Positions 1,354 through 63,613 of a DNA stretch of 64,000 bases are shown here, in pieces. Every line of letters starts with the position of its first letter. The stretch's first letter is position 1. Made by a program: the position numbers and the translations under genes. The notes under the pieces were generated by a model. That model ran no database searches. It was given only the letters and a program-made list of their open reading frames with translations, and was not told the origin of the DNA. The stretch comes from a virus: IMG/VR virus record IMGVR_UViG_3300037245_003639; one strand, written 5' to 3'.

Positions 1354-1382
1354 AGTATACAGGATGGCAGGAAGATTGTCAA
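1354..1382 (-). promoter_or_regulatory. sigma70-type promoter (TTGACA-17-TATACT) for gene 842..1330
   Basis: The minus strand reads ccTTGACAatcttcctgccatcctgTATACT, followed by aagggag and ATG at 1330. Confidence 0.7.
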
Positions 1383-1399
1383 GGCCCTTTAGAAGTGCT

Positions 1400-1600
1400 T
1401 TAACCCGCGGCTGTGGCCACGCCCCCTGAGATAAGTGTCAGGGCGAACCACCCGACAAGGACGCCGACGATGACTGACCATGCCATCAGGCCATTGGATA
1501 CGTCTTTGTCCTTATGCTGGAACTTGACGATGGTGATGTAACCAGCGAAGGGCAAAGCTATGGCTACGAACAGCAGGGTGATACCTGCGACCAATGGCAT
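1400..1600 (-). CDS. small membrane protein (2 TM)
   Basis: 66 aa, two hydrophobic helices. Confidence 0.45.
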   Translation of the reverse strand: MPLVAGITLLFVAIALPFAGYITIVKFQHKDKDVSNGLMAWSVIVGVLVGWFALTLISGGVATAAG

Positions 1601-1604
1601 TGCA

Positions 1605-1970
1605 TCACTCTGCTAACGACTGAGACACGATGACCAGCCGGATCTCTTCTTTGGTAACATCCGTTCCGTCGAAAATGGGGAACAGGGTATCTACCAACTT
1701 ATCCACGACTTGCTCAGCGGCATCCTGAAAATGCTCCTCAATCATTTGCTGGAGATTGGGATTGCTGGCCACAGCAGCAAATACTTCTTCTCCAACAGCC
1801 TCCTTGTAACCAACGAGACGTTCCGCCGCCGTGACCGGGAAACTCTCCGCAGTTTCCGCTTCGGCTTTCTGAGCCCCATCCAAGAACTTCTGAGCCCGTT
1901 CTTCATCGGCTTCGAGAACGCCTTCAACCTTCGCTAGGGCTGCGTGCATTTTTTCAGCAGATACTTTCAC
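1605..1970 (-). CDS. acidic hypothetical protein (GTG start)
   Basis: 121-aa ORF. TTAGGAG RBS lies 9 nt upstream of the GTG at 1970. Promoter at 2003..2031. Confidence 0.5.
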   Translation of the reverse strand: MKVSAEKMHAALAKVEGVLEADEERAQKFLDGAQKAEAETAESFPVTAAERLVGYKEAVGEEVFAAVASNPNLQQMIEEHFQDAAEQVVDKLVDTLFPIFDGTDVTKEEIRLVIVSQSLAE

Positions 1971-2002
1971 TTTTTGACTCCTAAAGCGATATCGCTCATG
2001 GT

Positions 2003-2031
2003 GTTATATCGGTTTCCTCACACATTGTCAA
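2003..2031 (-). promoter_or_regulatory. sigma70-type promoter (TTGACA-17-TATAAC)
   Basis: ccTTGACAatgtgtgaggaaaccgaTATAAC on the minus strand. Confidence 0.55.
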
Positions 2032-2034
2032 GGG

Positions 2035-2355
2035 TTATTCTCTGCTACCGTGAAACTTCTTACCCCGCCGTGCATTTCCTTTGTTGAGTGCTTCTAGCTG
2101 ACGTTGCTTGCGCATGTAGAGCATAATTTCCCACATGACAGCACAAGTGTAGCCCGCGTCGTCGAACCTGTGACGCATCGCCGCAGCGATGGCTTCCATC
2201 CCATTGGTATACGACAACCGGTCAAGCGGCGTATCCAACAGAATGTAGAGCGAATTGATAAAGTCTCGGCCTTTGTCACTAAGGGCCTTGAGGCGCAGAG
2301 TTTCCATATCAGACGATTGCATCACCAGACTCCTGTAGCCCTTTGAGCAAATCAC
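2035..2355 (-). CDS. hypothetical protein
   Basis: 106-aa ORF, no motif recognised. Confidence 0.4.
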   Translation of the reverse strand: MICSKGYRSLVMQSSDMETLRLKALSDKGRDFINSLYILLDTPLDRLSYTNGMEAIAAAMRHRFDDAGYTCAVMWEIMLYMRKQRQLEALNKGNARRGKKFHGSRE

Positions 2356-2895: not shown

Positions 2896-3233
2896 TGCTT
2901 ACCTCCCAGTTTGATATAAGCCGCCTTGGCCCTAATGAACATCTTAGTGGCCTTCGCCTTGGCATCATCCCCTTGATGTTTGTCGGGATGCCATTTCAAC
3001 GCAGCAATCCGATAGGCTCGCTTGATTTCATCCATCGAGGCGCCATGTCCAATACCAAGAATAGCCCATGGCGAATCTTCGCCAACAATCTCTTCGACTT
3101 GTTCCTCGGAAAGAGCATCTCGAAAAGCGGCTCGCCACTGGTCAGCGGTCCAGCGAGGGCCAGAATATGTGCCGTAAGGACAAAATCCCTTCGCGAAGAT
3201 GCTAGGACGCTTTGGGCCTTTCTTACGTGGCAA
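2892..3233 (-). CDS. J-domain (DnaJ-like) protein
   Basis: C-terminal WAILGIGHGASMDEIKRAYRIAALKWHPDKHQGDD, with the diagnostic HPD tripeptide of J domains. Confidence 0.7.
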   Translation of the reverse strand: MPRKKGPKRPSIFAKGFCPYGTYSGPRWTADQWRAAFRDALSEEQVEEIVGEDSPWAILGIGHGASMDEIKRAYRIAALKWHPDKHQGDDAKAKATKMFIRAKAAYIKLGGKQ

Positions 3234-3513
3234 GTTTCTGCCTCCATTGCTTGCAAGCCAGACTACGCCGCTGTTTGCGTCCTGGGAGCCCCATTGCTGT
3301 TAAATGCTTACAGTTGCCGTGACGGATATTTCCTGGGCAGGAACAGGTCCAGTAACCCGCTCCAGGCGCAGCATCAAACGAGACCCGATAAACGCGTTCA
3401 GATGTACTAGAGCCAACGTCGAAACGGCATTTGAAACGCTGTGTATCGGGATGAGTTGCTAGAGCATATCGCTTGGCTCCCGGGACCACCGCTAAAGCAT
3501 TAGCCATTCTCAA
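3223..3513 (-). CDS. SWIM zinc-finger protein
   Basis: YWTCSCPGNIRHGNCKHLTAM matches the SWIM CxC...CxH signature. TTG or ATG start sits behind an AGGGAG RBS. Confidence 0.55.
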   Translation of the reverse strand: MRMANALAVVPGAKRYALATHPDTQRFKCRFDVGSSTSERVYRVSFDAAPGAGYWTCSCPGNIRHGNCKHLTAMGLPGRKQRRSLACKQWRQKLAT

Positions 3514-3600: not shown

Positions 3601-4098
3601 TTATCTCCACGGATGTAGTTTCATTTTATGGCAAATAGCACAGGTACCTGTGTGAGGGGTCTCACGACCCGTGCATTTACAATAGTAGTCATTACTTTGG
3701 AGAGCCTCGGGCTGTCCGTCAAGTTCCCGTTTCATATCCACGATATCAGAATATTCAAAGAGTTGCCCGCATAAAAGACAGCGGTCTTCTGGCAGGAGTT
3801 CGAAAGTATCCTGGTTTCGATTCACCAACAATATTCCAAATTTACACTGAGGGCAGTCGCTTCTGAACGGCGAATTTTCGCTAGCACGAGTCAAACTGGC
3901 GTGCTTGACCACCTGCTTGGGTTCATCGATATTCAAAACCCCCAGCAGTTCTTGAATGCGATGATTACCCTCGGGCGTTTTCTCATCTATGCGGTTGATT
4001 TCCTGCATGATGACTTTTCGTTGTTCAGGTGTCATTGATTTTTCTCGATGCTTGGAATTAACGAGGCAATAGCCCAAATGCATTTGTTCAGGCGTCAT
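3601..4098 (-). CDS. Cys-rich zinc-ribbon protein
   Basis: CPQC...CLLCGQ...CKCTG...CAICHK motifs. Confidence 0.45.
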   Translation of the reverse strand: MTPEQMHLGYCLVNSKHREKSMTPEQRKVIMQEINRIDEKTPEGNHRIQELLGVLNIDEPKQVVKHASLTRASENSPFRSDCPQCKFGILLVNRNQDTFELLPEDRCLLCGQLFEYSDIVDMKRELDGQPEALQSNDYYCKCTGRETPHTGTCAICHKMKLHPWR

Positions 4099-4405
4099 TT
4101 CTCTTCTCGATGCTTTGGATCAACGAGACAATGGCCCAAATGCAAGTCACACCCGCGTCAAGGGCTTCCGCTGCGAAGTCTTCAACGACATTCGTTTGGT
4201 GGGCATCAATGAGTTCTTTCCACTCCTCCAAGAGAATGCCCATTGACTCCGCAGGGCTGGCATGTTTGCCCATGCCGAACTTATCGATGCGGCGTTGGAG
4301 GTTGTGACGTAACAGATCGAAGGCCATCTCGATTTCTTCGGACGTGGCTTCCGTTCGCACTACAACTGGTTTCTTGTAAGTCGCTTTCAAGGTTGGTTCC
4401 TCCAC
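4088..4405 (-). CDS. hypothetical protein
   Basis: 105-aa ORF behind the promoter at 4424..4451. Confidence 0.45.
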   Translation of the reverse strand: MEEPTLKATYKKPVVVRTEATSEEIEMAFDLLRHNLQRRIDKFGMGKHASPAESMGILLEEWKELIDAHQTNVVEDFAAEALDAGVTCIWAIVSLIQSIEKRNDA

Positions 4406-4451: not shown

Positions 4452-4535
4452 GGGAAATAGGAAGCCCCGTCCGTGATGTTATCCAAGCCGTTTCTCCCAG
4501 AGCGGGATTGAAGTGACGGACGGGGCTCATGGGAT

Positions 4536-4600: not shown

Positions 4601-5437
4601 ATGAAACATGCAATTGGCTTAGTCATTCGCGACCGATGGGACTTGACAAAACAGACTCTCAAAAGCTTGCGAGCCAGCGCTCAGAAAAAATACGATCTGT
4701 ACCTTGTGGATAACGGTTCATCTGATGAGAATGTCAAAAAACTCCAGACCTTCATTGCAAAATCCAAATTACCCGTCAAGCATCTGTTTTTATTAGATGA
4801 AGTTCCTATATCAATAGCTTTCAATCTGACGTTATATATGGCCAGGGGTTATCAATTCCGCGTAAAAATGGACAATGATATTCTGATAGCTCACAGTCAG
4901 AAGAACTTTTTAGATATCATGGTCAAAACAATGCGGAGCAAACCCAAACGTCGTAAGCAACCGGAAATTGGGTTAGTTAGTGTCTTGCCGATAGCCACCA
5001 ATTGGACTAAGAACAAAACTCTCATAAAAAGATTTCGAGAAGAAGCTGCCACCTATCGAGAATTTGGTAAGCCATACATGTTCGCAGCCTGTCTGATGAT
5101 TTCAAAGGCGTGTTTTCAACAAGTAGGGTATTTCGACGAACGTTTATGGCGACGTATCGACGTTGATTACTGTCATCGGGCTCACTCCGCGGGCATCGGA
5201 CTTGCTTACGCCCATGATTATTGGATTGTGCATACAGGCGCTGGGACTTCCACGGAAGGGAAAGAAGAAGTTCGGAATAGGTACCGTCAAGCCAAGAAGT
5301 TTGCGCGGAGAGGCAAACGATCACATGGCACTATTTGGAAGGGACTCCAGGTACCTAACCAGCAGATTATTGACTGGCGGGGATTGTTACCCGAGCAGAT
5401 TGTGTCAGCCAATTGTGAGCCGCCCGAATCAACATAA
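4601..5437 (+). CDS. family-2 glycosyltransferase
   Basis: The N-terminal LYLVDNGSSDEN matches the GT2 D-N-G-S-x-D nucleotide-sugar binding motif. This is a lone plus-strand gene inside the minus-strand block. Confidence 0.6.
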   Translation: MKHAIGLVIRDRWDLTKQTLKSLRASAQKKYDLYLVDNGSSDENVKKLQTFIAKSKLPVKHLFLLDEVPISIAFNLTLYMARGYQFRVKMDNDILIAHSQKNFLDIMVKTMRSKPKRRKQPEIGLVSVLPIATNWTKNKTLIKRFREEAATYREFGKPYMFAACLMISKACFQQVGYFDERLWRRIDVDYCHRAHSAGIGLAYAHDYWIVHTGAGTSTEGKEEVRNRYRQAKKFARRGKRSHGTIWKGLQVPNQQIIDWRGLLPEQIVSANCEPPEST

Positions 5438-8194: not shown

Positions 8195-8438
8195 ACGTCG
8201 TACCCGCCAGCCCCGATATTACGCAAAGAAATACTATGCTGGCCACCACTTTCGGGGAATCAGGTGCATATATGATTTCATAAGAGGCATGCGGCGAGTG
8301 CAGAACCGCTTCGCCTGCACACCTGAGAGCAATTTGAGCATCTGGCGTCAGATGACGGAATTTCACTGAATGGACGCTGTGGGTTTCCTTGTATCGCTTC
8401 CGAATATCACCGGGCACATACAGCTTCAAGTCCATCAC
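8160..8438 (-). CDS. small membrane protein
   Basis: C-terminal hydrophobic segment VVASIVFLCVISGLAGTTFVL. Confidence 0.35.
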   Translation of the reverse strand: MMDLKLYVPGDIRKRYKETHSVHSVKFRHLTPDAQIALRCAGEAVLHSPHASYEIIYAPDSPKVVASIVFLCVISGLAGTTFVLSALKWIWG

Positions 8439-8791
8439 TTTGACTCCAGTTGTTTTTCAGCCTTGTCTATCTTCTTGAGTTCTACTGCGATTTTCTGACG
8501 AGCCCATTCGCCATTGGCTCCATCAACAAACTCGCGGCAGAGTTGCATTACTTTATCCCTCCCGCGTTCCACTTTCGTATGCAAGTTCCAACGCAGGTCT
8601 TGATCTTTACTCTCTGCCTCCCATTTGGCGCTCCGCGCAGCCCTTCGTTTCTCGACTAGACTCGGAGCATGTTGCCAACAATAGAACTCTCCACCCTCTT
8701 TGATTGTGCCTGTCCGAATACACTGGTGATCCCACGGACCACTCAACAGGGTTGGGCTACTACATTGCGGCTTGTCTCTTTCGCGGGCCAT
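8435..8791 (-). CDS. hypothetical protein (leaderless mRNA)
   Basis: The ATG at 8791 lies 6 nt downstream of the -10 of promoter 8798..8826. Confidence 0.5.
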   Translation of the reverse strand: MARERDKPQCSSPTLLSGPWDHQCIRTGTIKEGGEFYCWQHAPSLVEKRRAARSAKWEAESKDQDLRWNLHTKVERGRDKVMQLCREFVDGANGEWARQKIAVELKKIDKAEKQLESK

Positions 8792-8797: not shown

Positions 8798-8826
8798 AAT
8801 ATAGCCGTTTACCGAAAGATTGTCAA
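8798..8826 (-). promoter_or_regulatory. sigma70-type promoter (TTGACA-17-TATATT)
   Basis: ccTTGACAatctttcggtaaacggcTATATT. Confidence 0.6.
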
Positions 8827-8865: not shown

Positions 8866-9147
8866 TCAGATGCGTACATGCGGGGCTATCTCGGTCTTGA
8901 CTTCAACGATATTGACGATGTTGCCGCGTGAACGGCCTGTTGGACCAAAGGAATTAACCCAGCTCTCAATATGGGCTTCGGTGGTCGAGGGACTTTCCAG
9001 CAGTTTCTTTGCCCCTTCTTCATTCTCAAGGATTGTGTTGTTATTGTTCTCTTCCAGCAACACGCGGAGGAGAGCGAACAGGTTGGCAAGGCTATATTCA
9101 TACGCATTGACATGGCCGTTGCTGTCTTGGATGATGATTGCTTTCAT
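8866..9147 (-). CDS. hypothetical protein
   Basis: ORF 8866..9249 trimmed to the MKAII start. It lies directly downstream of the U-tract terminator of ncRNA candidate 1. Confidence 0.4.
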   Translation of the reverse strand: MKAIIIQDSNGHVNAYEYSLANLFALLRVLLEENNNNTILENEEGAKKLLESPSTTEAHIESWVNSFGPTGRSRGNIVNIVEVKTEIAPHVRI

Positions 9148-9160
9148 CGTTCGTCTCGGA

Positions 9161-9446
9161 GAAAAAAATCTGCCATGATGCCGACTTACTTTGACTGTCT
9201 GCGAGCTACCGCTCTTGCGTGCTTCCGTTACACCACACCACATAAACACAATATATGCGTCTCATGGATGGACGGATTCGAACCGCCATTTCCAAACCAT
9301 CAAGACGGCGACTACGGAATCGAATCGCAGGAAGTTGGCGCTGCTGTGTAGCCGACCGCATTGTCTGCCGACAATGGGCGGGGTGGCCCTTCCTGGCGAT
9401 ATCCGTCCAAGGCCCGCTCATGGCTTCGACGGGCAGCCGTGTCTCA
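9161..9446 (-). ncRNA. structured small RNA candidate 1 (tRNA-like T-arm module)
   Basis: Promoter 9453..9481 predicts a start near 9446. The transcript contains GGCGGTTCGAATCCGTCC, a T-arm-like hairpin. A 7-bp long-range helix TGGACGG/CCGTCCA (+ coordinates 9403-9409 and 9269-9275) encloses about 141 nt, and there is an internal hairpin CATTGTC-GGCA-GACAATG. It ends with GATTTTTTTC (+ coordinates 9161-9170). Confidence 0.4.
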
Positions 9447-9647: not shown

Positions 9648-10736
9648 TCACTTAGTTCGATACCCTCTACGAGCCTTCGTATTCACAGGCAGATCCGGTC
9701 TCACCGTAGTCTGCCCGAAAAACATCAACTTCACCATAGCTTTTCCTGGCCCGTGCCTGACCCAATGCCAGTGGGCTCCCCGCTGATGTTGGAAACTCAA
9801 TACTGAGCCATCTCCTGGCTCTCCTGAGCCCGTCTGACAGCCCGGAATGACGATTTCCCGCCCCATAGTCCAACCATGCTTGTGATTTCGTATGGCTCGG
9901 CTAATGATGCGCTCCTGAATCTCGGTATCTTCTTTTTGCTTCGCATCCAAATAGCGAAGTAGGTCTCTGTTTAGAACGTCACATTCGACGATTTTGTCTC
10001 CACCCGTGGCGAGAAAAGTTACGGCGACAGCAATCCTGTAACAGGCATCGATAACCGTGAGCGGGATGGGGATTCCACCATTAGCGACGCAATTGTCTTT
10101 GATATACAAACCCTTCTCTATATTCTTGCCCAAGACTTCTTCAACTGTCTGGGTCTCATCAGAGAACAACAACTGCTGATACGTAAGAATCGGATACTGC
10201 TGTTCCCCCATCGGCTCAAGTTCATTCACGTCTATAAAGATGATGATTTGGCGGAATTCACCCTCTACCACGCCCCCTTGAGGATTGCCGAATACTAACC
10301 CTGGATGCTTGCCTTGTTGATCACCGCCAACCAGGATGGTTCGAACGTAATGATTATCATCAATTTTAAGAACATCGACATTGTGTTCTTTAGGCAAGCG
10401 AATGATAAAAGCAGGAAAGGGTAAACGGAAGTATTCCGATGGAACATCCAGTTTGGTAGAGACAAAATACGGAAGCAAATCAGGATAAATTTTGTAATAG
10501 GGTCTCCGGTTCAGTTCCCAACTTCTCTCGCAGGTGTATTGGATATTGCCGAGAGTTGGTGTAAGCGTCTGCTCTATTGTAGCCTGCCCTCGTTTCTGGG
10601 CGTCAGACGACCTTAGAGCATCAGCAACTGTTCGTTTCAGCTCCTGATCATACCAATCGAGGGCAGACAGGGAAGTTCCCTTAAGCCGACGTATCAGATC
10701 GTAGATAGAAAGATATTCGTGAAATTCCATATGCAC
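9648..10736 (-). CDS. hypothetical protein (362 aa)
   Basis: Long clean ORF, no confident motif. Confidence 0.5.
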   Translation of the reverse strand: MHMEFHEYLSIYDLIRRLKGTSLSALDWYDQELKRTVADALRSSDAQKRGQATIEQTLTPTLGNIQYTCERSWELNRRPYYKIYPDLLPYFVSTKLDVPSEYFRLPFPAFIIRLPKEHNVDVLKIDDNHYVRTILVGGDQQGKHPGLVFGNPQGGVVEGEFRQIIIFIDVNELEPMGEQQYPILTYQQLLFSDETQTVEEVLGKNIEKGLYIKDNCVANGGIPIPLTVIDACYRIAVAVTFLATGGDKIVECDVLNRDLLRYLDAKQKEDTEIQERIISRAIRNHKHGWTMGREIVIPGCQTGSGEPGDGSVLSFQHQRGAHWHWVRHGPGKAMVKLMFFGQTTVRPDLPVNTKARRGYRTK

Positions 10737-12137: not shown

Positions 12138-12671
12138 TCAGTCCTCCACTTCCATTGGTTTCAGGCTTCCCGTCAAAAGGCCCCATTTCGTCAAAGCAAC
12201 GATTGTTTTGGCATCGGTAATTGTTCCGTCCGAAATCTGTTCGACAACATGACCGACAGACAGAGTAATCGGCTCAAATTCACGCTCACCCGGACAGACT
12301 TCCAATCCCCAAGCCAAATACAAGTGGATGACTTCGGAACAGAATCCGGGGGAAGGCAGCATCGTTCCCAAAGATGCTATGTGAGACGGCTTGTGGCCGA
12401 TTTCTTCCACCATCTCACGGACCCCCGTCATACTCAGGGCTTCGCCTGCCACGTCACAAGTCCCCGCAGGGATTTCGATAACGTCACATTCTGGCCCCGC
12501 TCGATGCTGACTACAGAGCAATATCAAAGAATCCTCTGCGCATGGCGGGGCTTGCCCTGCCTTGAGATCCTGTGAGCCCCATTTGAGCACAGGAATCACA
12601 GCGACGGAGCCAGGGTGATCAACGACGCTATAGCCGTTGTCACGGATAACAACTTTGAAGGGAGCAGGCAT
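12138..12671 (-). CDS. NUDIX hydrolase, ADP-ribose pyrophosphatase-like
   Basis: Nudix box GTCDVAGEALSMTGVREMVEEIGH (GX5EX7REUXEEXGU). The N-terminal SVAVIPV resembles the ADPRase family. Confidence 0.7.
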   Translation of the reverse strand: MPAPFKVVIRDNGYSVVDHPGSVAVIPVLKWGSQDLKAGQAPPCAEDSLILLCSQHRAGPECDVIEIPAGTCDVAGEALSMTGVREMVEEIGHKPSHIASLGTMLPSPGFCSEVIHLYLAWGLEVCPGEREFEPITLSVGHVVEQISDGTITDAKTIVALTKWGLLTGSLKPMEVED

Positions 12672-12673: not shown

Positions 12674-13006
12674 TTACATCCTTGTAAAACGACGCATTTC
12701 TCGAAATCGATGGCCCTGGTTAGCCAAATGAACCATCACTTCAATGCGTGAGCATAGAGATTGGCAAGGGACGCCACCCAAAACCATATCAGCAGGCACC
12801 CGCGCATCATCGAGGGCCTTTTCAATATTCTGCGTTCGCCTATGAGCGAAAGCGAGTCTCTTGCCAAGTTCTGCGCAGAGATTATCCAACTCCTCGCGAG
12901 AAAGAAACTCATCGACAATAAGTTTATCAAGAGCCGCTTTCGCTGCGGGATCTATGACAGCCTCTTTGCAAATTTTCGCGGCAACTGGGAGCAACGCTTT
13001 CTCCAT
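12674..13006 (-). CDS. hypothetical protein
   Basis: 110-aa ORF with its ATG directly behind promoter 13018..13046. Confidence 0.45.
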   Translation of the reverse strand: MEKALLPVAAKICKEAVIDPAAKAALDKLIVDEFLSREELDNLCAELGKRLAFAHRRTQNIEKALDDARVPADMVLGGVPCQSLCSRIEVMVHLANQGHRFREMRRFTRM

Positions 13007-23687: not shown

Positions 23688-23717
23688 GAGTATACAACGA
23701 AAAAGAGAGATTGTCAA
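23688..23717 (-). promoter_or_regulatory. sigma70-type promoter (TTGACA-17-TATACT) with conserved leader
   Basis: cccTTGACAatctctctttttcgttgTATACT, then CTGCGTAGCAAAG...AAAGGGAGAAT. Confidence 0.65.
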
Positions 23718-51744: not shown

Positions 51745-52053
51745 TTACATCTCGTCGATGAGCTGGTGCAAAATACTCTGACCATCAAGTTGGGCAGGGC
51801 GTCTGAAATCTACCAGTTCTCGGAGGCCATGGGGGAAACGGATGTACAAAGGATAGAATTCACCATCTTTAACCGCCCATAAGATAGCCTCTCTATCCGA
51901 TGTTATGACGATGGCCATCGTCAGTGTGTAATCGGGATGAACTGCAAAAACAGCTTCTCGATAGCATCCTGCTTTGTCGAGATATTCAATCTCGAAATTG
52001 AACCCATTGATTGCTCCCCCGAATAATTCGATGCCAGAATCTGTGATAATCAT
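51745..52053 (-). CDS. hypothetical protein (last minus-strand gene before the strand switch)
   Basis: GGAGAGG RBS. A TTGCAA-16-TAATAT promoter lies at about 52090-52117. Confidence 0.45.
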   Translation of the reverse strand: MIITDSGIELFGGAINGFNFEIEYLDKAGCYREAVFAVHPDYTLTMAIVITSDREAILWAVKDGEFYPLYIRFPHGLRELVDFRRPAQLDGQSILHQLIDEM

Positions 52054-52234
52054 CGTTCCTCTCCGTCACCTTTTCCGAGACGCTATGCTATATTAGCAGT
52101 ATGAAATGGGATTGCAAGCGGATTCAGGATAAAGTTCACCGTCCAGTAAATCATCGTCCTTTAACAAAAGCTCTGATAACGTTTCTCGACAAACCTTGCA
52201 GGAATTACATCACTTTCTGAGTTACACACATATC

Positions 52235-55909: not shown

Positions 55910-56032
55910 AACTTGAAGATAAGGGTGATAAAACAAGCCATAGGTAGTCTCAAACCCGTATACCACTAGTTATAGTGACCTTGTAGAAACTCAATGAATA
56001 CTACATTAAAGCTGGAAAGTGCAATAAAAAGC

Positions 56033-56061
56033 TTGACACGACTTGTCAAGCCCTGTAATGT
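56033..56061 (+). promoter_or_regulatory. sigma70-type promoter (TTGACA-17-TAATGT) embedded in the palindrome CTTGACAcgacTTGTCAAG
   Basis: gcTTGACAcgacttgtcaagccctgTAATGT. Confidence 0.55.
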
Positions 56062-56135
56062 CTATCGACGGGGTCAACGGGGGATTGGTAATAAGACCAA
56101 AAATGTAAGTTCATTAGGACGAACGGAGAAAGACG

Positions 56136-57113
56136 ATGGCGACGGCAATAAGGAAAAGAAAACAGCCCCCGGCTAAGCCCCAAATTCCTTTGCAAGGAAG
56201 AAGGGCCAACCGAATAGCTCTGGACTTTACAAGAGGTCAGGGACCAAATCGCCGCACATTTTACAAGTGCGGCGTACTCGAAGCCGCAAGACGGCATCAG
56301 CTTCCGCTAAGAGTGGTTGATAAGAATGGCGTTGTACACCTCATTCCGCCTGACCGCATGGTTCACCGACCCCAACTCGATGACAAATTCGGTGATGCCC
56401 ATGAATTGTCAGGACAGGGCAAATACATCGACAACGATGCCCTCAGCGGGCGAGGCCAAAACACAACCGTAACCGGCGCTCAATATGTCAACCCGTATCT
56501 GGCCGAAGACCGTTCCTACCATACCATCATTCAGTGCTTCCATCATCTTGCAAAACAGACCATCACCAGATTGTCGGCTCGCTTTGCGCGTGATCGCGTC
56601 AACGGTCAACATCTGCTGTGGCAAGGTAAATCCGCTGTGGACGGAGCAGTAGCTGTCTCACCCTGGATCACCGAGGACGAATTGTGGGAGCTGGCCAACA
56701 ACCTCAATCCGGGTTTGAAGGCTCTACTCCGCAAATCCAAAGCCGCCATCAAGAAGGGCGTCAAGAAGCATCAGACGCCGAGAGGCAAATTCGGCGACAA
56801 CCTAAATGTTCTTCGTCGTGCGCGACGGACATTCCGGACAGCGACAGGTGAAACCGAGTATCGCGGCGGTGAGACACCTTACGGAGTCCCGTTGGAGCAA
56901 TGTGGTTTTGCCATCGACATGTTCTTCCTCACGACAGGCTACGACGAGGGTCTAGAAGTAGGCGAATACCACTTCCGTCTCGCCTATGGTCGAAATACGC
57001 CGTGGATACTGTATTATCGTGACTGGCAAGGCATGGGAACCCAAGACCGCATCGCGTTCCTCAACAACAAAATCCGCACAGACGTAATCCAGCGATACGA
57101 TCAGCAGACTTAG
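56136..57113 (+). CDS. hypothetical protein (325 aa)
   Basis: GGAG RBS, no confident motif. Confidence 0.45.
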   Translation: MATAIRKRKQPPAKPQIPLQGRRANRIALDFTRGQGPNRRTFYKCGVLEAARRHQLPLRVVDKNGVVHLIPPDRMVHRPQLDDKFGDAHELSGQGKYIDNDALSGRGQNTTVTGAQYVNPYLAEDRSYHTIIQCFHHLAKQTITRLSARFARDRVNGQHLLWQGKSAVDGAVAVSPWITEDELWELANNLNPGLKALLRKSKAAIKKGVKKHQTPRGKFGDNLNVLRRARRTFRTATGETEYRGGETPYGVPLEQCGFAIDMFFLTTGYDEGLEVGEYHFRLAYGRNTPWILYYRDWQGMGTQDRIAFLNNKIRTDVIQRYDQQT

Positions 57114-57529
57114 TTGGGCTCGCCCGGTGATACGGCGTGTTCGCCGCCGGGCATGACTGCTACTGTTAGATGTAGTGGGACTAAAGGTTGTGCAGGCAAC
57201 CCAAGAGCCTGACGAATCTGCAATAAACCTTCACATTCTACCGGCAACCAGAGATGCTTGTCATTCGTGACAAGTTGGTGGGCATATCCAAACTGCATCT
57301 CTCTGTTCTGGTACGGTAGAATCTTTCCTTCCTCTACCAGTTCTTGTCTCATAACTGTAATATGCGGCCCCCATGCTGGAGGCATCATGGCCGCATAGCG
57401 ACAAGTGAACTTGCGACATAGGTAACGATGATACCGAGCAAGCTCAGTGCAACATTCCACGAGCATCCACCAGTAACCGGGTCTAGCCCGAGATGGAATC
57501 ACTTTAATGTTTCCGCTTGACAATCTCAT
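57110..57529 (-). CDS. 2H phosphoesterase superfamily protein (LigT/CPDase or Acb1-like fold)
   Basis: Two H-x-T-x motifs (GPHITVM and PLHLTVAV). This is a minus-strand gene inside the plus block and is leaderless behind promoter 57536..57564. Confidence 0.5.
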   Translation of the reverse strand: MRLSSGNIKVIPSRARPGYWWMLVECCTELARYHRYLCRKFTCRYAAMMPPAWGPHITVMRQELVEEGKILPYQNREMQFGYAHQLVTNDKHLWLPVECEGLLQIRQALGLPAQPLVPLHLTVAVMPGGEHAVSPGEPN

Positions 57530-57545
57530 GGCTACAGCGTATTCT
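57517..57545 (+). promoter_or_regulatory. sigma70-type promoter (TTGACA-17-TATTCT)
   Basis: cgcTTGACAatctcatggctacagcgTATTCT. Its -10 overlaps the -10 of the opposing minus promoter. Confidence 0.55.
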
Positions 57546-57564
57546 ACACGAGTAAGATTGTCAA
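57536..57564 (-). promoter_or_regulatory. sigma70-type promoter (TTGACA-17-TACGCT) for the 2H phosphoesterase gene
   Basis: ccaTTGACAatcttactcgtgtagaaTACGCT. Confidence 0.5.
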
Positions 57565-57577
57565 TGGAGACCTTAGC

Positions 57578-58054
57578 ATGGCTGTTGAATTTACACATGG
57601 CGGAAAGACCTACTCGGTGGTCTTTGACACAAAGCAACATCGAACCAGGAATCTCCAGAAAAGAGGGATTCTACAACCCCGCAAAACCCAAGCCAAGCGG
57701 ACTGCGGACCCGCTAACCCGCCGATGTACTCATTGCACCGTTAAGGATGGCGAAAAGCCGATTGCCAACGGGATGGCAGTCTGTAGTCCCACGGACAAGT
57801 TCGATAACAGGACTGGCCAGAAGATGGCATTACGGCGAGCGATTAGTCGGGCTCGACAAGACAGAACCCGTCAACTAATAGTTGACAGGACGCTGCCGAC
57901 TGCCGAAAACATTGTCTCTCTTGACAAGGGACTAACGCCAGTTTTAGATCGAGATTGGGCCGCAGAAGCGTGGCAAGCTCTATTTGATTCGCAAACCATC
58001 AACGCCAGAGCCGCGCGACAACGTGCAAAGAAACAGACCGAGAAACACGCTTGA
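57578..58054 (+). CDS. hypothetical basic protein
   Basis: GGAG RBS, 158 aa. Confidence 0.45.
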   Translation: MAVEFTHGGKTYSVVFDTKQHRTRNLQKRGILQPRKTQAKRTADPLTRRCTHCTVKDGEKPIANGMAVCSPTDKFDNRTGQKMALRRAISRARQDRTRQLIVDRTLPTAENIVSLDKGLTPVLDRDWAAEAWQALFDSQTINARAARQRAKKQTEKHA

Positions 58055-58079
58055 CTTTCTACAAGACTCCTGATAGTCT
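58051..58079 (+). promoter_or_regulatory. sigma70-type promoter (TTGACT-17-TAGTCT)
   Basis: cgcTTGACTttctacaagactcctgaTAGTCT. Confidence 0.45.
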
Positions 58080-58102
58080 ATATAGAGAGAAAGGATACAA
58101 GC

Positions 58103-58339
58103 GTGCCTAAGAACCAACAACCAACGCCCAAAAAACAGGCTCTTTGCATAGTCACCCAAGAGACCCAAAGGGGAGACAGGCTTGTTGCCACTACTGCTCT
58201 CTTCAATCCAAGATTGCGCGACGTTGACAACACCACTATCCTTGTGATGGCCAATTTCTTTGTCAAAACTCTTGCTAGAAGAGTGGGACCAGAACGAGCC
58301 CAAGAGCTTATCGCTGCAAGTTTGATGGGTAATTTATAA
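58103..58339 (+). CDS. hypothetical protein (GTG start)
   Basis: 78-aa ORF with an AGAAAGGA RBS. Confidence 0.4.
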   Translation: MPKNQQPTPKKQALCIVTQETQRGDRLVATTALFNPRLRDVDNTTILVMANFFVKTLARRVGPERAQELIAASLMGNL

Positions 58340-58343
58340 AATT

Positions 58344-58790
58344 ATGACAGACAGCAACGTGGATGACAGACAGCCTACGACCGTATTGGCTCGGCAGGCT
58401 ATCAAAAAAGCGCTCAAGGAAGTAGAATGGTGGAAACTTGTTCACGATGAAGTGAAAAAAGCCTTACATCTCATCATTGAACATATAGATACGCTTGGAA
58501 CACCTTTTCGAGATTCGTTTCGGGCAGCCTGTCAACTCGAAGCCATCCGTCGAGTAATACTCCAACAAAGCGGGGATGATAGCCCTAGTATCGTGTTCGG
58601 CTCAAAACTCCCAGAAGAAAAATACCAAAGCTCAAAGGCACCCGTAAAGTTATTGCTGGGATTAAATGACTGGTTTGATCCTAATGAAGCTGATGTTCAA
58701 TCTTGTTATTTAATCTGTGACCATGTGAACATTCTGGAACGACTAGATGTCATCGAAGGTCAAGATAAAAGCGGACCAAATGAAGAATAG
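58344..58790 (+). CDS. hypothetical protein
   Basis: 148-aa ORF. Confidence 0.45.
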   Translation: MTDSNVDDRQPTTVLARQAIKKALKEVEWWKLVHDEVKKALHLIIEHIDTLGTPFRDSFRAACQLEAIRRVILQQSGDDSPSIVFGSKLPEEKYQSSKAPVKLLLGLNDWFDPNEADVQSCYLICDHVNILERLDVIEGQDKSGPNEE

Positions 58791-58801
58791 GGAGCTTCCG
58801 C

Positions 58802-59443
58802 ATGATCAGCGAGGCCCAACTGCTCAAACAATGGGGAAACGACAGATTGGGTCTGGCAGCATTCCTGGGTTCAGCACTCAGTCACATTCCATCGTTAACC
58901 GATCCTTTTTGTAGCAGCTTCGGAGAAACTCTGTTTGCGAAACTAAGGATGTGCGAACGCATCGACCACTTGTACAACAAAATCGAACATCGACACAGAG
59001 AAAAAAAGGAGTTCCAAAAAACTGTAATATTCGGCTACCGAGATAAAATCGCATTCATCGAAGACAAAATCGGGGATTATGGTCATCTCTGCCTGATGAT
59101 GCTTCGCGATTTAGACCCTCCGAATCAAGTCTACGCTATTCGAATTTATACCGATGGCTCAGATTGTCCTCCTTTCTTATTGTCCACTTGGACTGACAAA
59201 TTTCCGACTTTCGAGAATGTCGCTGGTTATTGTAAACATGTGGTTCATAATAGCAGCAGTGAAAACGAAAGTGATTATGAACATGTTTGCGACCACGATG
59301 AAACCTTCTGGAATTTCGTATGCAATGACGAAGGTCTAAAAGTCTGGGAGCACTCCGAAGGGTTCATGGACTTACGTATGACCCGACGCATCGCCAAGCT
59401 TACCGAATGGACGAGCAATATGCTCGGATTCCAGGAAAGTTGA
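58802..59443 (+). CDS. hypothetical protein
   Basis: 213-aa ORF. Confidence 0.45.
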   Translation: MISEAQLLKQWGNDRLGLAAFLGSALSHIPSLTDPFCSSFGETLFAKLRMCERIDHLYNKIEHRHREKKEFQKTVIFGYRDKIAFIEDKIGDYGHLCLMMLRDLDPPNQVYAIRIYTDGSDCPPFLLSTWTDKFPTFENVAGYCKHVVHNSSSENESDYEHVCDHDETFWNFVCNDEGLKVWEHSEGFMDLRMTRRIAKLTEWTSNMLGFQES

Positions 59444-59457
59444 TTTTCTATAAAGGC

Positions 59458-59486
59458 TTGACAATCTTCCGAAAACTTGGTAATCT
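59458..59486 (+). promoter_or_regulatory. sigma70-type promoter (TTGACA-17-TAATCT)
   Basis: ggcTTGACAatcttccgaaaacttggTAATCT, then ggagatcctgcATG. Confidence 0.6.
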
Positions 59487-59512
59487 TCCGTAGTGTCAAT
59501 CGGAGATCCTGC

Positions 59513-61114
59513 ATGGCTACCAAACTTGGCAGAAAAGCGTATCCATCTGGCGTCAGCCCAGGCGATTTTGAGTGCTTTGGCCCAGTTGCTACAAAAGATG
59601 GTGAATTCGACGACGCCCGGCTCGCTGACCTGGGATGTTTCAACCAGGAAGGCGTAGATTCCAACAAATATTACCATGGGTCCATATGTAAAGCGAATGG
59701 CAAGTGGTATGTATACTTCCAGTGGGGACGGACGGGAGGCACGGGTGATTTCCAGTTCTTCGAGTGCTATGATGAGCATGATGCTCAGGAACAGTTCACC
59801 AAACAACTACGCTCGAAGAATGATAAACGGGGTGAATGGGTGATGAAAGGGGGACTCGGCAAAGTCCTCCGGGCCAAGCCCAATAAAGACTGCTATTTGG
59901 TTCGCCCGCTGGCTACCCGAGACGATACCAGCCCTGGATTGCCAGGAGCAATTGCTGTTACCACAGGTGACGTGAAGGTTAAGAAGACCGTCAAGAAAAC
60001 ATCGAAGAAGAAAACGAAAACTCCGTCTCGCACTTTCGATGCTGAAACGATCAGTCTCATGCGAGCAATGAATGTTGCTGCCGTCCAGTTTACAAAGAAA
60101 AGCATCCAAGGCGGCACCATTCCCACGCAAGCGTCTATCGAGGAAGCCCGAACGGTTCTTATCGAAGCCCAAAAACGGCTGGTCGTTGTAGGCGACAACG
60201 TAAAATCCCAAATCGCTGATACAGAGCTTCGCCAGTTGACCTATCACCTGTACGGCAGGGTTCCCAAAATCAAGCGGGTAGGAGCCCCCGAGAGCGAGTG
60301 GATTCTAAGCCAGGATAACATCTTTACTTGGACCGCTGACTTGGATGCGTTCGAAAACGCTCTGGCCGTTGCTACAGTCGAAATCGAGGAAACCCAAACT
60401 GACAAAGACCCGCTCGGTGGGATGAAGATCGACATGCGGCACCTGCCTCTCGGTGACAAGCAAGGTGATTTCATCCGTAAATGGATGCCTGACGCTTCGC
60501 TTGACCGCCATTCGTGGGTTGGGGACATGAAGATCAAACATGTTTGGGAAGTCACTCGCCACGATGACCCCAAACGATTTGCTGGAGCTATTGACCGAAT
60601 CACTAAGGGGCGAGTGGACACAAGGCATAAGCCAATCAAACAGCCCCGAAAGCGAATCGACTTGGACACTCAGGAAGCCAAGCGTTACGAGGCTGCCAAT
60701 GTCGGAATGCTTTTCCACGGCACTCGTAGCGTCAACGTCCCGGGCATCCTGCGCACAGGATTGCGTTTACCCAACCAACTTGTTGGCGTCGTCATTACAG
60801 GAGCCATGTTTGGCCCTGGTATTTATTGGGCTGACGACTGGAAGAAGAGTGCGGGATACACGAGCCTCAGTGGTTCATACTGGAGTTCTGGCAGCGGCGG
60901 GGTGCGCGGTCGCAAAGCATTTATGTTCGTGGCCGACGTTGCACTTGGGACTGCCCACGTAGCAAACGGATACCGTGGTTATACGGCGGCGCCAAGGGGC
61001 TGTCACTGTGTTTTCGGGAAAGCGGGTAGTAGCGGAGTTGCAAATAACGAGTGGATCGTCTATACTAACGAGCAAAATCGTCTTCGCTATCTCGTGGAGT
61101 TTGATGCCAAATAG
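59513..61114 (+). CDS. WGR-domain poly(ADP-ribose) polymerase-like protein
   Basis: WGR motif WYVYFQWGRTGGTG. The catalytic core LFHGTRSVNVPGILRTGLRLP...AMFGPGIYWADDWKKSAGY...NEWIVY parallels the PARP1 H-G-S / GKGIYFAD / YNEYIVY triad. Confidence 0.75.
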   Translation: MATKLGRKAYPSGVSPGDFECFGPVATKDGEFDDARLADLGCFNQEGVDSNKYYHGSICKANGKWYVYFQWGRTGGTGDFQFFECYDEHDAQEQFTKQLRSKNDKRGEWVMKGGLGKVLRAKPNKDCYLVRPLATRDDTSPGLPGAIAVTTGDVKVKKTVKKTSKKKTKTPSRTFDAETISLMRAMNVAAVQFTKKSIQGGTIPTQASIEEARTVLIEAQKRLVVVGDNVKSQIADTELRQLTYHLYGRVPKIKRVGAPESEWILSQDNIFTWTADLDAFENALAVATVEIEETQTDKDPLGGMKIDMRHLPLGDKQGDFIRKWMPDASLDRHSWVGDMKIKHVWEVTRHDDPKRFAGAIDRITKGRVDTRHKPIKQPRKRIDLDTQEAKRYEAANVGMLFHGTRSVNVPGILRTGLRLPNQLVGVVITGAMFGPGIYWADDWKKSAGYTSLSGSYWSSGSGGVRGRKAFMFVADVALGTAHVANGYRGYTAAPRGCHCVFGKAGSSGVANNEWIVYTNEQNRLRYLVEFDAK

Positions 61115-61180
61115 CGGTAGCGAGTGCGTCAGCGTAGACGGGCTCGTAGCGTTTTGTTTCACACAGCTTGGAGGTTAGTC

Positions 61181-62566
61181 ATGCCTTACGGAAATTCAGG
61201 ACCAGCAATCTCAAAACGCACCATTTTCGGAGGTGCAGCGGCAGTCTTCTGCATTATTATTTTAGTTGTCGTCCTCATAGGCGGCTTCGGGATGAACAAT
61301 CTCAGCGACTGGCAGGTCAAACAGAGCATCAATGGCCACATTACGGTCATTGACAACCCCGGCTGGTACATGAAGATGTTCGCCAGCGTTTGGACGTATC
61401 CCCGTGCCTATCAGACCGAATACGGCACTGGTGATGATGACAGCGGCAACCAGACAGTGCGGGTCACCTTCAACGACGGCGGTACGGCTCAAGTTAGTTC
61501 GATGATCCGTTTCGGCACGCCCAAGAGGGAAGAGACCCGCTTGCTCTCTCACCGAGAATTTGGCAGCATCGGAAACATTGCCTCCTCTGTGCGAGCCCAT
61601 CTGGTAAACTGCATGAAGGCGTCCGCGCCGTTGATGTCGTCATCGGAACACCAATCGGCGCGTAAAGCCGAGTTCACGCAGATTGTGGACGATATGCTCC
61701 GCAAGGGCATCTACCAGATGCGACAGGTCGAGACGCAACTGAAAGATCAGACAGACGAAACCGGTGCTCCAATCACAGTCATGGCTACCGAAGTCATACG
61801 TGATGAAAACGGCCTGCCAGAGATCGCCCAAACATCGCCGTTACTCACCTACGATATCGAAGTCTTGCAGTTTTCGATCACTTCGACCAACTATGACGAG
61901 ATCACCTTGCAGAAGTTCGCAGCCAAGAAAGAATCGTACCTGCGGGCTGAGCAGTCCAAGGCCGAACGTGAGGAAGAAGTTCAGCAGCGATTGATGGTTA
62001 TCGAGAAGGGCAAACGCGAACTCGCCGAAGTTGAAGCTGCGGCAAATAAAGAGATGATGACTGCCACAGTTAACGCCGAGCGAGACGCCAGCGTTGCCAG
62101 AATCGATGCCCAGAAGAAAGTCACAGTGGCAGAGCAAACTAAGCTTGAAGCTGAGACTGCTGCCAGTCAAAAGGTTGCAGTGGCCGAACTTCAACTCGCA
62201 GAGGCTAAGCTGATTGCCCAATCTGCTGATGAACAAGCCAAGGCCATCCGCGTCCTGGCGGCTGCTGAGGAAGAGAAGATTCAAAAGGGTGGAGCCATCA
62301 CCGAACACGAGCGTGTCCTCGCCCAAATCGAATGGGACGGACGAGCCAAGGTAATGGAAGCCTTCGCTCAGATGAGCCCAAACACGCTTGTTCCCAGCGT
62401 TATGATCGACGGCGGGGGCGGCGCGGGATCTGGTACCAGCATGAAAGATGATCTGATTGTTCTTAAGCTTCTGCAAGAACTTGGCATGCTCAATATGTCC
62501 CAGGCACGCCCTGGTGCTGGAAAGATGATTCCCAGCAGCGCGGCAGCTCCTGAGATCAGCGAGTAG
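61181..62566 (+). CDS. SPFH/flotillin-like membrane protein
   Basis: N-terminal TM helix, a band-7-like region, then a long Ala/Glu-rich coiled coil (EAE repeats) as in flotillin or YqiK. Confidence 0.55.
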   Translation: MPYGNSGPAISKRTIFGGAAAVFCIIILVVVLIGGFGMNNLSDWQVKQSINGHITVIDNPGWYMKMFASVWTYPRAYQTEYGTGDDDSGNQTVRVTFNDGGTAQVSSMIRFGTPKREETRLLSHREFGSIGNIASSVRAHLVNCMKASAPLMSSSEHQSARKAEFTQIVDDMLRKGIYQMRQVETQLKDQTDETGAPITVMATEVIRDENGLPEIAQTSPLLTYDIEVLQFSITSTNYDEITLQKFAAKKESYLRAEQSKAEREEEVQQRLMVIEKGKRELAEVEAAANKEMMTATVNAERDASVARIDAQKKVTVAEQTKLEAETAASQKVAVAELQLAEAKLIAQSADEQAKAIRVLAAAEEEKIQKGGAITEHERVLAQIEWDGRAKVMEAFAQMSPNTLVPSVMIDGGGGAGSGTSMKDDLIVLKLLQELGMLNMSQARPGAGKMIPSSAAAPEISE

Positions 62567-62587
62567 TAAAACACCTGGGAGGTTGCC

Positions 62588-62947
62588 ATGCGAATGTTCG
62601 CTTACCTTATACTGCTGGGAATCGCTGCTTTGATTTCCTTCCTGGCCTGGATTATTATCTTGGCCAAGAGAGAATATCAGTACAAGCGGCAATTCAGACA
62701 AGCCCTGGACCGTGAACAGTCGAAGCGTGATACCATCTGGAAAGAGGCGAGAGCCATTACGGATATGGTGAACCTGTACATGGGCGTGGTCTGCAAACAC
62801 GGCCCAAATTCGCCAACGGCAAAGGCTTTCCGCTTCGGAACAGATAGTAAGCTGATGAAGAAGCTCCACGGTGACGATGAGGCTATGGAGGCGTTCAATC
62901 AGCAATGTGACATCATTGACGCTACTTACCGACAAGCTGTGAGATGA
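62588..62947 (+). CDS. membrane-anchored hypothetical protein
   Basis: N-terminal TM, 119 aa, GGAGG RBS. Confidence 0.45.
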   Translation: MRMFAYLILLGIAALISFLAWIIILAKREYQYKRQFRQALDREQSKRDTIWKEARAITDMVNLYMGVVCKHGPNSPTAKAFRFGTDSKLMKKLHGDDEAMEAFNQQCDIIDATYRQAVR

Positions 62948-63333
62948 TGACAACGAACCCAAAAATCAAGTTCGTTTGTCCCACCTGTAGGGAAGATCGA
63001 ATTGTTGAACTTCGCTCTCAGGTGGACCTTAAAACCGAAGTGGCGGGGGTCTTTGTAACAAGAGACCCCGCCACCAATGGGACTAAGTGCAGTCTCGAAC
63101 AGGGTAATGAAGGCGGACGTACTGACGGAAAAGTAACTGGCTTCTGTTGTGACGCCTGCGGGTTTATCATCAAAACCCAACGACGACTTCTCGGGACGTG
63201 GCAGCGCAAACATTACAATAAGCCCGAGTTTTCAACCCCGAAACCAATTACCACCCCCAGAGGCTTGTATCTTTGGCTGAAACGCAACAATATGATCGAG
63301 GAGCCAGAAAATGCAATTGCAACTACCGCCTAG
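62944..63333 (+). CDS. zinc-ribbon protein
   Basis: CPTCRED...CCDACG. Confidence 0.45.
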   Translation: MMTTNPKIKFVCPTCREDRIVELRSQVDLKTEVAGVFVTRDPATNGTKCSLEQGNEGGRTDGKVTGFCCDACGFIIKTQRRLLGTWQRKHYNKPEFSTPKPITTPRGLYLWLKRNNMIEEPENAIATTA

Positions 63334-63559
63334 CGCCATCTTCGGGATTATTCTTTTCGCTCTATCATTCGTCCATTTAATTGCAGCCATAATAATGGGT
63401 CAGATAGCTGCCAAAAAGCAAGGGGAGCACGTAGGCGACTATGGCTGGACAATCGGCTGCGTTGTATCCGCTATCGGAGCACTAGTCTACGGGATTTTGT
63501 TTGCCCGGTTCCTGTACAACCTAGGCGAGAGTTTCTTTGGTCATTCATGTACAATCTAG
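63311..63559 (+). CDS. small membrane protein
   Basis: Two TM helices. Confidence 0.4.
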   Translation: MQLQLPPSAIFGIILFALSFVHLIAAIIMGQIAAKKQGEHVGDYGWTIGCVVSAIGALVYGILFARFLYNLGESFFGHSCTI

Positions 63560-63584
63560 GTCTGCGATTTCGGGCAGAAAATCC

Positions 63585-63613
63585 TTGACAATCTCTGGTT
63601 AATGTCTTAGTGT
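63585..63613 (+). promoter_or_regulatory. sigma70-type promoter (TTGACA-17-TAGTGT)
   Basis: atccTTGACAatctctggttaatgtctTAGTGT. Confidence 0.5.

Follow-up and report, generated by a model that had tools for sequence, protein, structure and literature searches.

The 64,000-nt window analysed here is a stretch of viral DNA (IMG/VR record IMGVR_UViG_3300037245_003639) in which one promoter-like element, a TTGACA hexamer followed 17 bp later by TANNNT, recurs between genes. Judged from their sequence, these sites are very probably promoters for small accessory or early genes, read by a primary sigma factor of the sigma-70/sigma-A type. The genome is taken to be that of a huge phage of ~403 kb; a 403,172-bp metagenomic contig has on record a protein that matches, at 100% identity, the 594-aa GHKL-ATPase protein of the window. 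Megablast of 20 kb against GenBank phages returned no match, and tblastn of one window protein gave best matches of only ~27% identity, so we find no cultured relative of this phage. In IMG/VR, neither an exact 50-mer nor a protein-based search had a match.

A repeated element with a 17-bp spacer

An initial annotation, made from the sequence alone, had reported at least 28 copies of the element. Searching both strands of the window for TTGACA-N17-TANNNT, we found 29 exact matches where 0.48 would be expected: 24 on the (−) strand from 1354 to 46963, one on the (−) strand at 57536-57564, and four on the (+) strand from 56033 to 63613. The longer form CCTTGACAATCT, with at most one mismatch allowed, was matched 20 times (0.50 expected). 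The scan with a position weight matrix (PWM) that the annotation had proposed was run within the window, using a matrix that spans −10 to +29 around the −35 hexamer, with pseudocounts and a cut-off of >12 bits. It yielded 35 sites, against 0.66 in Markov shuffles. TTGACA is exact in 32 of the 35, the remaining sites having one mismatch each, and the mean density is one site per 1.7 kb, or 35 sites among ~100 genes. Permitting spacers of 16–18 bp gained no site over 17 bp, which shows the spacer to be strictly 17 bp, as had been claimed. When the extended −35 block alone served as anchor, TANNNT was found exactly 17 bp away in 16 of 20 cases and at 16 or 18 bp in none, and two further anchors had TATAAA or TATAAC at 17 bp. 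Because anchoring on the −35 alone recovers the −10 at this distance, the two behave as one unit. A loose generic sigma-70 scanner was uninformative (30 matches versus 22.5 in shuffles); the high-scoring class alone stands out.

The sites are placed and oriented with respect to genes. The gene model, scored by codon usage, has ~100 genes, whose direction is leftward as far as 52.05 kb and rightward beyond 52.25 kb, apart from a few embedded genes on the opposite strand; these include a GT2 glycosyltransferase gene at 4601-5437 (+) and gene 57110-57529 (−). Non-coding sequence makes up 9.6% of the window, yet it holds 31 of the 35 sites (binomial 1e-27), and 34 of the 35 share the orientation of the gene that follows, in agreement with the co-orientation described initially. 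The lone exception, 57230(+), has the −10 GATGCT, without TA..T, and is probably spurious. The statement that almost every intergenic gap carries the element was too strong, since a site is present in 26 of the 37 gaps of at least 45 bp (~70%). The strand-switch gap itself (52054-52246) has only a degenerate variant, TTGCAA-N16-TAATAT, which scores a mere 2.5 bits in the PWM because its spacer is 16 bp. No PWM site was found between 46,963 and 56,033, a block of large genes. Its products include an AAA ATPase with an intein, a protein that weakly resembles a tape-measure protein, and a possibly virion-associated protein of 1220 aa in which a GH108 lysin domain was recognised. A second (late) promoter motif, sought by eye in the site-less gaps, was not evident.

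Further evidence came from the start codons. At seven sites (8826, 10765, 33126, 34807, 35845, 45948 and 57564; sites are named by their upstream end), an ATG lies exactly 6–7 nt past the −10, at the predicted +1. These seven ATGs open reading frames (ORFs) of 59–360 aa with no Shine-Dalgarno (SD) sequence, where 0.38 would be expected in 35 sites (P 9.5e-8). The seven genes appear to be leaderless, with mRNAs that would start at the predicted +1. The other sites precede SD-led genes, whose start codons follow the −10 at a distance of ~13–55 nt. Site 57564(−) seems at first to be on the wrong strand, and this is explained by the leftward leaderless gene 57110-57529 that it would serve. At 57517-57564 two full TTGACAATCT copies face each other with their −10 boxes overlapping, suggesting divergent, mutually exclusive promoters for 57578-58054 (+) and for leaderless 57110-57529 (−).

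Conservation extends beyond the hexamers. The column profile of the 29 exact sites is A-rich at −9 to −4 relative to the first T of TTGACA, corresponding to ~−44 to −39 from the start site, and one column of this stretch (−6 relative to the −35) is A or T in 29 of 29. A C immediately precedes TTGACA in 24 of the 29. Of the extensions pointed out in the initial annotation, CC is present in 15 of the 29 exact matches and ATCT likewise in 15 (CC in 19 and ATCT in 16 of the 35 PWM sites), with 0.6–0.9 bits per position for ATCT. Directly before the −10 the profile reads T-C-(T/G)-G-G, a partial extended −10, and TGn is found there in 13 of 35 sites. The middle positions of the −10 are loose. TATACT is commonest (8 sites), followed by TAGCAT, TAATAT and TACACT, so that TATACT, TAGCAT and TAATAT, as listed originally, are among the most frequent forms.

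Further upstream, eight of the 35 sites (1382, 8826, 13046, 23717, 25688, 29196, 29717 and 32219) have an RCACYC box at a fixed −16/−17 relative to the −35 (P 5e-7), directly 3′ of the stop codon of the upstream gene. This box, also present in the related contig L124, marks a cassette subfamily. Three sites have in common the full leader CTGCG(T/C)AGCA..GAAAGGGAGAT..ATG, although their three downstream proteins are non-homologous. The hexamers are far better conserved than the remainder of this cassette. Extra TTGAC(A) copies lie 11 (or 12, 22, 33) bp upstream of the −35 at 38838-38893, 42918-42963 and 46935-47001, and copies 11 bp upstream, a spacing of about one helical turn, recur in a relative (L122:493-532 and L122:6067-6106). 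The number of sites with such extra copies is not significant (P 0.2).

Arrays in related and unrelated viral contigs

Three contigs, L122, L123 and L124 (62–69% marker identity), are syntenic with the window and carry CC-TTGACA-ATCT...TATACT at ~4–5 per 10 kb, always on the strand of the genes. Alignment of the marker-gene promoter, which is orthologous in all three, showed no change in the −10 or in the −35 and its flanks, against a diverged spacer; orthologues of promoter 32219 follow the same pattern, with the boxes kept while the spacer diverges. ATCT is not strictly kept at orthologous promoters, where ATTA, GTCT, AAGC and ATCA occur. The 17-bp coupling, the intergenic and co-oriented placement, the ATG at the predicted +1 in seven cases, the conservation at orthologous positions in three relatives and the 403-kb, phage-like contig all support what the initial annotation had proposed at its core, namely sigma-70-type promoters in an early or accessory region of a large phage.

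More distant relatives, L125 and L127 (43–46% marker identity), have denser arrays, at 10–14 per 10 kb, with the shared core C-TTGACA-A. The flanks differ by lineage: aatgC-TTGACA-AAC in L125, C-TTGACA-AATCTT with a 16-bp spacer in L127, and CC-TTGACA-ATCT with 17 bp in the window clade. The L128/L129 clade (41% identity) has no array. A scan of all 250 loci fetched by motif searches also found arrays of up to 23 sites per 10 kb in seven viral contigs from IMG/VR and metagenomes (L006, L174, L043, L133, L141, L090 and L036; GC 35%–55%), each with a flank flavour of its own, and tblastx detected no similarity between these seven and the window. Counted as near-consensus promoters, their density is 5–27 per 10 kb. 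Because unrelated viral contigs have equally dense arrays, a dense, uniform and idiosyncratically extended sigma-70 array is a common phage solution, not one confined to this genome. A metagenome scan with the exact strong form of the motif gave single matches only, among the matches listed. In L006 and L174 several of the promoters lead into GC-rich structured sequence and not into SD and ATG.

Probable promoter function and competing explanations

From these patterns we infer the polymerase and sigma factor that read the sites, as well as the early timing and the strength of the promoters. Most likely the host RNA polymerase holoenzyme would read them without any phage protein. Sigma region 4 would contact the perfect −35 TTGACA with its flanking C and A, and sigma region 2 the TA...T −10 beyond the 17-bp spacer; sigma region 3 could contact the TGn upstream of the −10 where this is present, in about a third of the sites. 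The A/T tract would fall at the proximal UP subsite of the alpha-subunit C-terminal domain (alpha-CTD). Transcription would start ~7 nt past the −10, giving short SD leaders or, in the seven cases above, leaderless mRNAs, and at least one start would yield a non-coding tRNA-like RNA. Given one promoter per 1.7 kb and few intrinsic terminators, genes would be fed by upstream read-through besides their own promoter. The second C, ATCT, the RCACYC box and the shared leader would have spread between unrelated genes as a cassette of 60–70 nt, combined with selection for strength.

The initial annotation had suggested an additional recognition determinant, either a phage factor or UP-like contacts. 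The second half of this suggestion stands, as the A-tract, at the UP position, and the partial TGn match known alpha-CTD and sigma-region-3 contacts (PMC2988021, PMC2613000). The phage factor finds less favour, and no observation calls for one: CC, ATCT and RCACYC vary among relatives, and unrelated contigs have comparable flanks. Idiosyncratic flanks in unrelated phages, together with variation between lineages, argue for propagation of a cassette or optimisation and not for a dedicated factor.

The element is ordinary in kind, a strategy already known from phages such as T4, and calls for no new mechanism. T4 early promoters are of the UP/−35/TGn/−10 type, with additional consensus regions, and are read by the unmodified host sigma-70 holoenzyme (PMC2988021). 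Like the window sites, they occur as dozens of near-consensus copies in regions of small early genes, co-oriented with the genes and with read-through between units, and they share the A/T-rich UP-like tract, TGn and consensus positions outside the canonical boxes. Unlike T4, the window favours TATACT as its −10, its flanks (CC, ATCT, RCACYC) are lineage-specific, its genome is unrelated and far larger, and seven of its units appear to lack a leader; for the window, expression early in infection and reliance on the host are predicted. The T4-type −35, TTTACW in the promoters of the PeSL (promoter-early stem-loop) elements of the PST/T4 pair (PMC4122927), also contrasts with the perfect E. coli-type TTGACA seen here. 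With canonical sigma-70 promoters (PMC2613000, PMC1807945) the sites share TTGACA, the 17-bp spacing, T−12/A−11/T−7, TGn at −15 to −13 and the proximal-UP A-tract. Cellular promoters, however, rarely match so well and are never so uniform at one per 1.7 kb, and ATCT (−29 to −26) and RCACYC (~−52 to −46) are without a described polymerase contact.

Several observations weigh against reading by the host holoenzyme at ordinary promoters. Eleven of the 37 gaps of at least 45 bp are without the element, the −10 is only moderately near TATAAT, and TGn is confined to 13 of 35 sites. Terminator-like sites were not enriched in a generic scan (25 versus 19.5), which leaves the boundaries of transcription units undefined. 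Lastly, the window covers 64 of 403 kb, and a sigma or polymerase gene could lie elsewhere, which would equally suit a phage-encoded reader.

The sites recall the PeSLs of the T4-like phages RB49/phi1, PST and nt-1 (PMC2839356, PMC4122927), which likewise repeat, between small variable genes, a composite of AT tract, near-perfect promoter of the TTGACA-N17-TATAAT type, SD and start codon, with a lineage-specific consensus and the same cassette before unrelated genes; seven of the window units are leaderless, not SD-led. It is possible, though we lean away from it, that the element is first of all a PeSL-like mobile cassette, kept homogeneous among its copies and acting as a point of exchange in the shuffling of small genes, promoter activity being real but secondary. 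A cassette of 60–70 nt (RCACYC, A-tract, CC-TTGACA-ATCT, TATACT, CTGCGTAGCA..GAAAGGGAGAT and ATG) precedes three non-homologous genes, the sites are located between small ORFan-like genes, and PeSLs with near-perfect sigma-70 boxes are described as behaving in this way in T4-like phages (PMC4122927, PMC2839356). However, clear hairpins lie directly upstream of the promoter only at 4451, 35845, 42095 and possibly 63585, so that the defining stem-loop or terminator half is present at ~4 of 35 sites. A uniform PeSL-type composite of stem-loop and promoter was rejected, most sites having no upstream hairpin, and for the same reason we do not file the element as a PeSL. The much stronger conservation of the hexamers, compared with the cassette around them, points to selection on transcription itself.

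Could the conserved flanks serve regulation? It is unlikely that CC..ATCT, RCACYC and the phased TTGACA copies are operators for a dedicated regulator, set atop ordinary sigma-70 promoters, whether an activator or a phage repressor that ends early transcription. The information content of ATCT, at positions with no known polymerase contact, would fit such a role, as would the fixed position of RCACYC and the extra TTGAC found exactly 11 bp upstream at 38866/38877, 46963, L122:504 and L122:6078, and a gene for a helix-turn-helix protein (51225-51743) adjoins the strand switch. Yet ATCT varies at orthologous promoters, the extra TTGAC copies are not significantly frequent, and unrelated phages have analogous idiosyncratic flanks; the box, found in a quarter of the sites, invariably adjoins the upstream stop codon and is carried along with the shared leader, which fits common descent of a cassette. 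Very unlikely, in our estimate, is a recognition code in which the second C, ATCT (−29 to −26), RCACYC (~−50) and the helically phased TTGACA copies co-evolve, lineage by lineage, with a phage-encoded factor and let the phage tell its ~200+ promoters from those of the host. Candidates for such a factor would be a protein resembling sigma region 4, a polymerase modifier that is injected (e.g. the WGR/PARP enzyme) or a shut-off repressor.

We regard it as very unlikely, too, that a phage-encoded sigma-70-family factor or a phage-modified polymerase reads the sites, the flanks and spacers of each lineage reflecting its specificity. Flanks and preferred spacer do vary between the window clade, L127 and L125, but the core matches the housekeeping consensus exactly (TTGACA, 17 bp, TA...T), the 50 window ORFs that were scanned yielded no sigma or polymerase domain, and unrelated contigs of 35%–55% GC combine this core with flanks of their own, which is what adaptation of each to its host holoenzyme should produce. 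To our knowledge, the phage sigma factors described so far (T4 gp55, SPO1 gp28/gp34 and phiEco32 gp36) read clearly different motifs. The WGR/PARP-type ADP-ribosyltransferase of the window does recall the Alt protein of T4, known to modify the alpha subunit and to stimulate certain early promoters (PMC2988021).

If the sites are primary-sigma promoters, as we favour, then the PWM and the 35 mapped sites provide a promoter model for an uncultivated phage lineage of ~400 kb. They would define the transcription units of the window, including the seven leaderless genes and several candidate non-coding RNAs, and they indicate that the primary sigma factor of the host reads TTGACA/TATAAT. A primary sigma of this kind argues against a Bacteroidota host. 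An extended consensus particular to each lineage should be useful for phage annotation, binning and host inference.

Candidate small RNAs, individual sites and neighbouring genes

Directly downstream of promoter 32219 lies a predicted RNA of ~90 nt at 32100-32192 (−), with orthologues at L124:676-766 and L123:7759-7852. Its T-arm (GGTTCGAATCC) and D-arm resemble those of tRNA and, with a closed hairpin that is acceptor-like, follow one another in the permuted order of YrlA; a stem of 7–8 bp closes the whole. Its fold z-score is −3.1, and the consensus fold of the three genomes has 23 pairs, 4 of them compensatory. YrlA (RF02553) is the best Rfam family in all three genomes, at 26.2, 30.8 and 40.5 bits (E 1e-3 to 1e-5), scores that in none of the three reach the YrlA gathering score (69). 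The window copy aligns to RF02553 arm for arm, and L123 and L124 also match this family. The closing stem has no GNCGAA Ro60-binding motif, and no TROVE match was found among the 50 window ORFs scanned or the genes of L123 and L124. ARAGORN detected no tRNA, either in the window or in any of the three orthologous regions. With its arms in permuted order, 32100-32192 was also considered as a permuted tRNA gene; a YrlA-like mimic was preferred because YrlA is the best Rfam match in all three genomes. We therefore describe 32100-32192 as a candidate YrlA-like, tRNA-mimicking small RNA. It lies in a neighbourhood of RNA-repair genes (RtcB, Pnkp-like kinase/phosphatase, ligase).

Other predicted transcripts also begin without an evident gene. 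Downstream of promoter 9481, ~300 ORF-free nt (9150-9446, −) include a module at 9215-9295, where the T-arm GGTTCGAATCC recurs exactly, along with a hairpin that resembles a D-arm. This module scores 18.6 bits (E ~0.008) with a custom RNA model, is more divergent than 32100-32192, and may belong to a second, longer tRNA-like non-coding RNA. The transcripts predicted after promoters 4564 (4452-4530, −, ~79 nt) and 36025 (35846-35990, −, ~140 nt) have no ORF of at least 40 aa and end in a strong hairpin and U-tract immediately before the next promoter; they are candidate small RNAs or attenuators.

Table 1. Predicted promoters of the window, with the gene or transcript that each would serve. Sites are listed from left to right.
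Position	Strand	Predicted feature	Support
1354..1382	−	CC-TTGACA-ATCT, −10 TATACT, RCACYC box; gene 842-1330	PWM 35.9 bits
2003..2031	−	CC-TTGACA-ATGT, −10 TATAAC; gene 1605-1970	PWM 26.9 bits
3535..3563	−	Shared leader cassette (TATACT-CTGCGTAGCA..GAAAGGGAGAT); gene 3223-3507	PWM 39.6 bits
4423..4451	−	Directly 3′ of 13-bp hairpin terminator; gene 4088-4390	PWM 23.4 bits
4536..4564	−	CC-TTGACA-ATCC, −10 TAGCAT; then ~79-nt hairpin-terminated transcript 4452-4530	PWM 36.8 bits; fold z=−3.1
8798..8826	−	RCACYC box; leaderless gene 8435-8791, ATG 6 nt past −10	PWM 33.4 bits
9453..9481	−	−10 TATAAA; ~300 ORF-free nt with tRNA-like module, then gene 8866-9147	PWM 32.7 bits
10737..10765	−	Leaderless gene 9648-10730 (360 aa)	PWM 26.1 bits
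13018..13046	−	RCACYC box, TGG before −10 TATGCT; gene 12674-12994	PWM 32.1 bits
13384..13412	−	−10 TACACT; gene 13063-13371	PWM 22.2 bits
16654..16682	−	Shared leader cassette; gene 16035-16625	PWM 32.5 bits
21854..21882	−	GHKL/HATPase gene 20037-21821; orthologous promoters in L122, L123, L124	PWM 31.8 bits; alignment
23689..23717	−	RCACYC box and shared leader cassette; gene 22898-23650	PWM 34.6 bits
25660..25688	−	RCACYC box, TGG-TAATAT; gene 25158-25616, RtcB downstream	PWM 36.3 bits
29168..29196	−	RCACYC box, TGG-TAGCAT; gene 28339-29115	PWM 38.1 bits
29689..29717	−	RCACYC box, overlaps 3′ end of gene 29685-30245; gene 29222-29668	PWM 32.2 bits
32191..32219	−	RCACYC box; candidate YrlA-like RNA 32100-32192, then gene 31832-32059; kept in L123, L124	PWM 30.5 bits
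33098..33126	−	Leaderless gene 32773-33090	PWM 29.4 bits
34779..34807	−	Weaker, TTGACT, TGG-TATACT; leaderless ORF 34592-34771	PWM 18.5 bits
35817..35845	−	Directly 3′ of GC-rich terminator hairpin; leaderless gene 35478-35810	PWM 20.8 bits
35997..36025	−	~140 nt to terminator upstream of site 35845, no ORF of at least 40 aa	PWM 26.2 bits
36594..36622	−	−10 TACCAT; gene 36176-36508	PWM 25.2 bits
38838..38877	−	Two overlapping candidates in three phased TTGACA copies (11-bp steps); gene 37802-38818	PWM 22.9, 21.9 bits
42067..42095	−	Directly 3′ of long terminator hairpin; gene 41813-42043	PWM 24.3 bits
42918..42946	−	Weak, extra TTGAC 12 bp upstream; gene 42150-42857	PWM 17.6 bits
45920..45948	−	Leaderless ORF 45656-45913	PWM 23.2 bits
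46935..46963	−	Extra TTGAC copies 11 and 33 bp upstream; gene 46284-46889	PWM 20.0 bits
52090..52117	−	Degenerate strand-switch variant TTGCAA-N16-TAATAT; possible promoter of gene 51745-52053	Read from sequence; PWM 2.5 bits
56033..56061	+	Weak, inside palindrome GCTTGACAcgacTTGTCAAGC; gene 56136-57113	PWM 13.1 bits
57230..57258	+	Doubtful match, TTCACA / GATGCT, inside gene 57110-57529; probably not a promoter	PWM 23.6 bits
57517..57545	+	Gene 57578-58054; −10 overlaps opposite-strand −10	PWM 24.6 bits
57536..57564	−	Divergent, overlapping; leaderless leftward gene 57110-57529 (weak 2H-phosphoesterase match)	PWM 20.9 bits
58051..58079	+	TTGACT, −10 TAGTCT; gene 58103-58339	PWM 24.6 bits
59458..59486	+	TGG-TAATCT; WGR/PARP gene 59513-61114	PWM 31.4 bits; Pfam
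63585..63613	+	CC-TTGACA-ATCT; gene starting 63652	PWM 28.9 bits

The perfect palindrome at 56031-56051 (GCTTGACAcgacTTGTCAAGC) puts a −35 hexamer on both strands. Among the proteins encoded in the window are RtcB, a Pnkp-type kinase/phosphatase, an ATP-dependent ligase, NAD kinase, NUDIX, WGR-PARP, PP2C and VWA proteins, a beta-helix/dockerin protein and many ORFans. NAD kinase, radical SAM, GHKL ATPase, RtcB, Pnkp-like kinase/phosphatase and 2H phosphoesterase genes make up an RNA-repair/NAD cluster at 17622-31242 and 57110-61114, to which the ATP-dependent ligase (34842-35477), NUDIX (12138-12671) and WGR-PARP (59513-61114) genes also belong. This cluster suggests counter-defence against host systems that target tRNA or NAD. 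An intein that carries a LAGLIDADG homing-endonuclease domain splits the AAA ATPase gene (47165-49855, −; Pfam Intein_splicing and LAGLIDADG_3). The GT2 glycosyltransferase gene within the leftward block has a poor codon-usage score and no promoter element, and it may be a recent acquisition.

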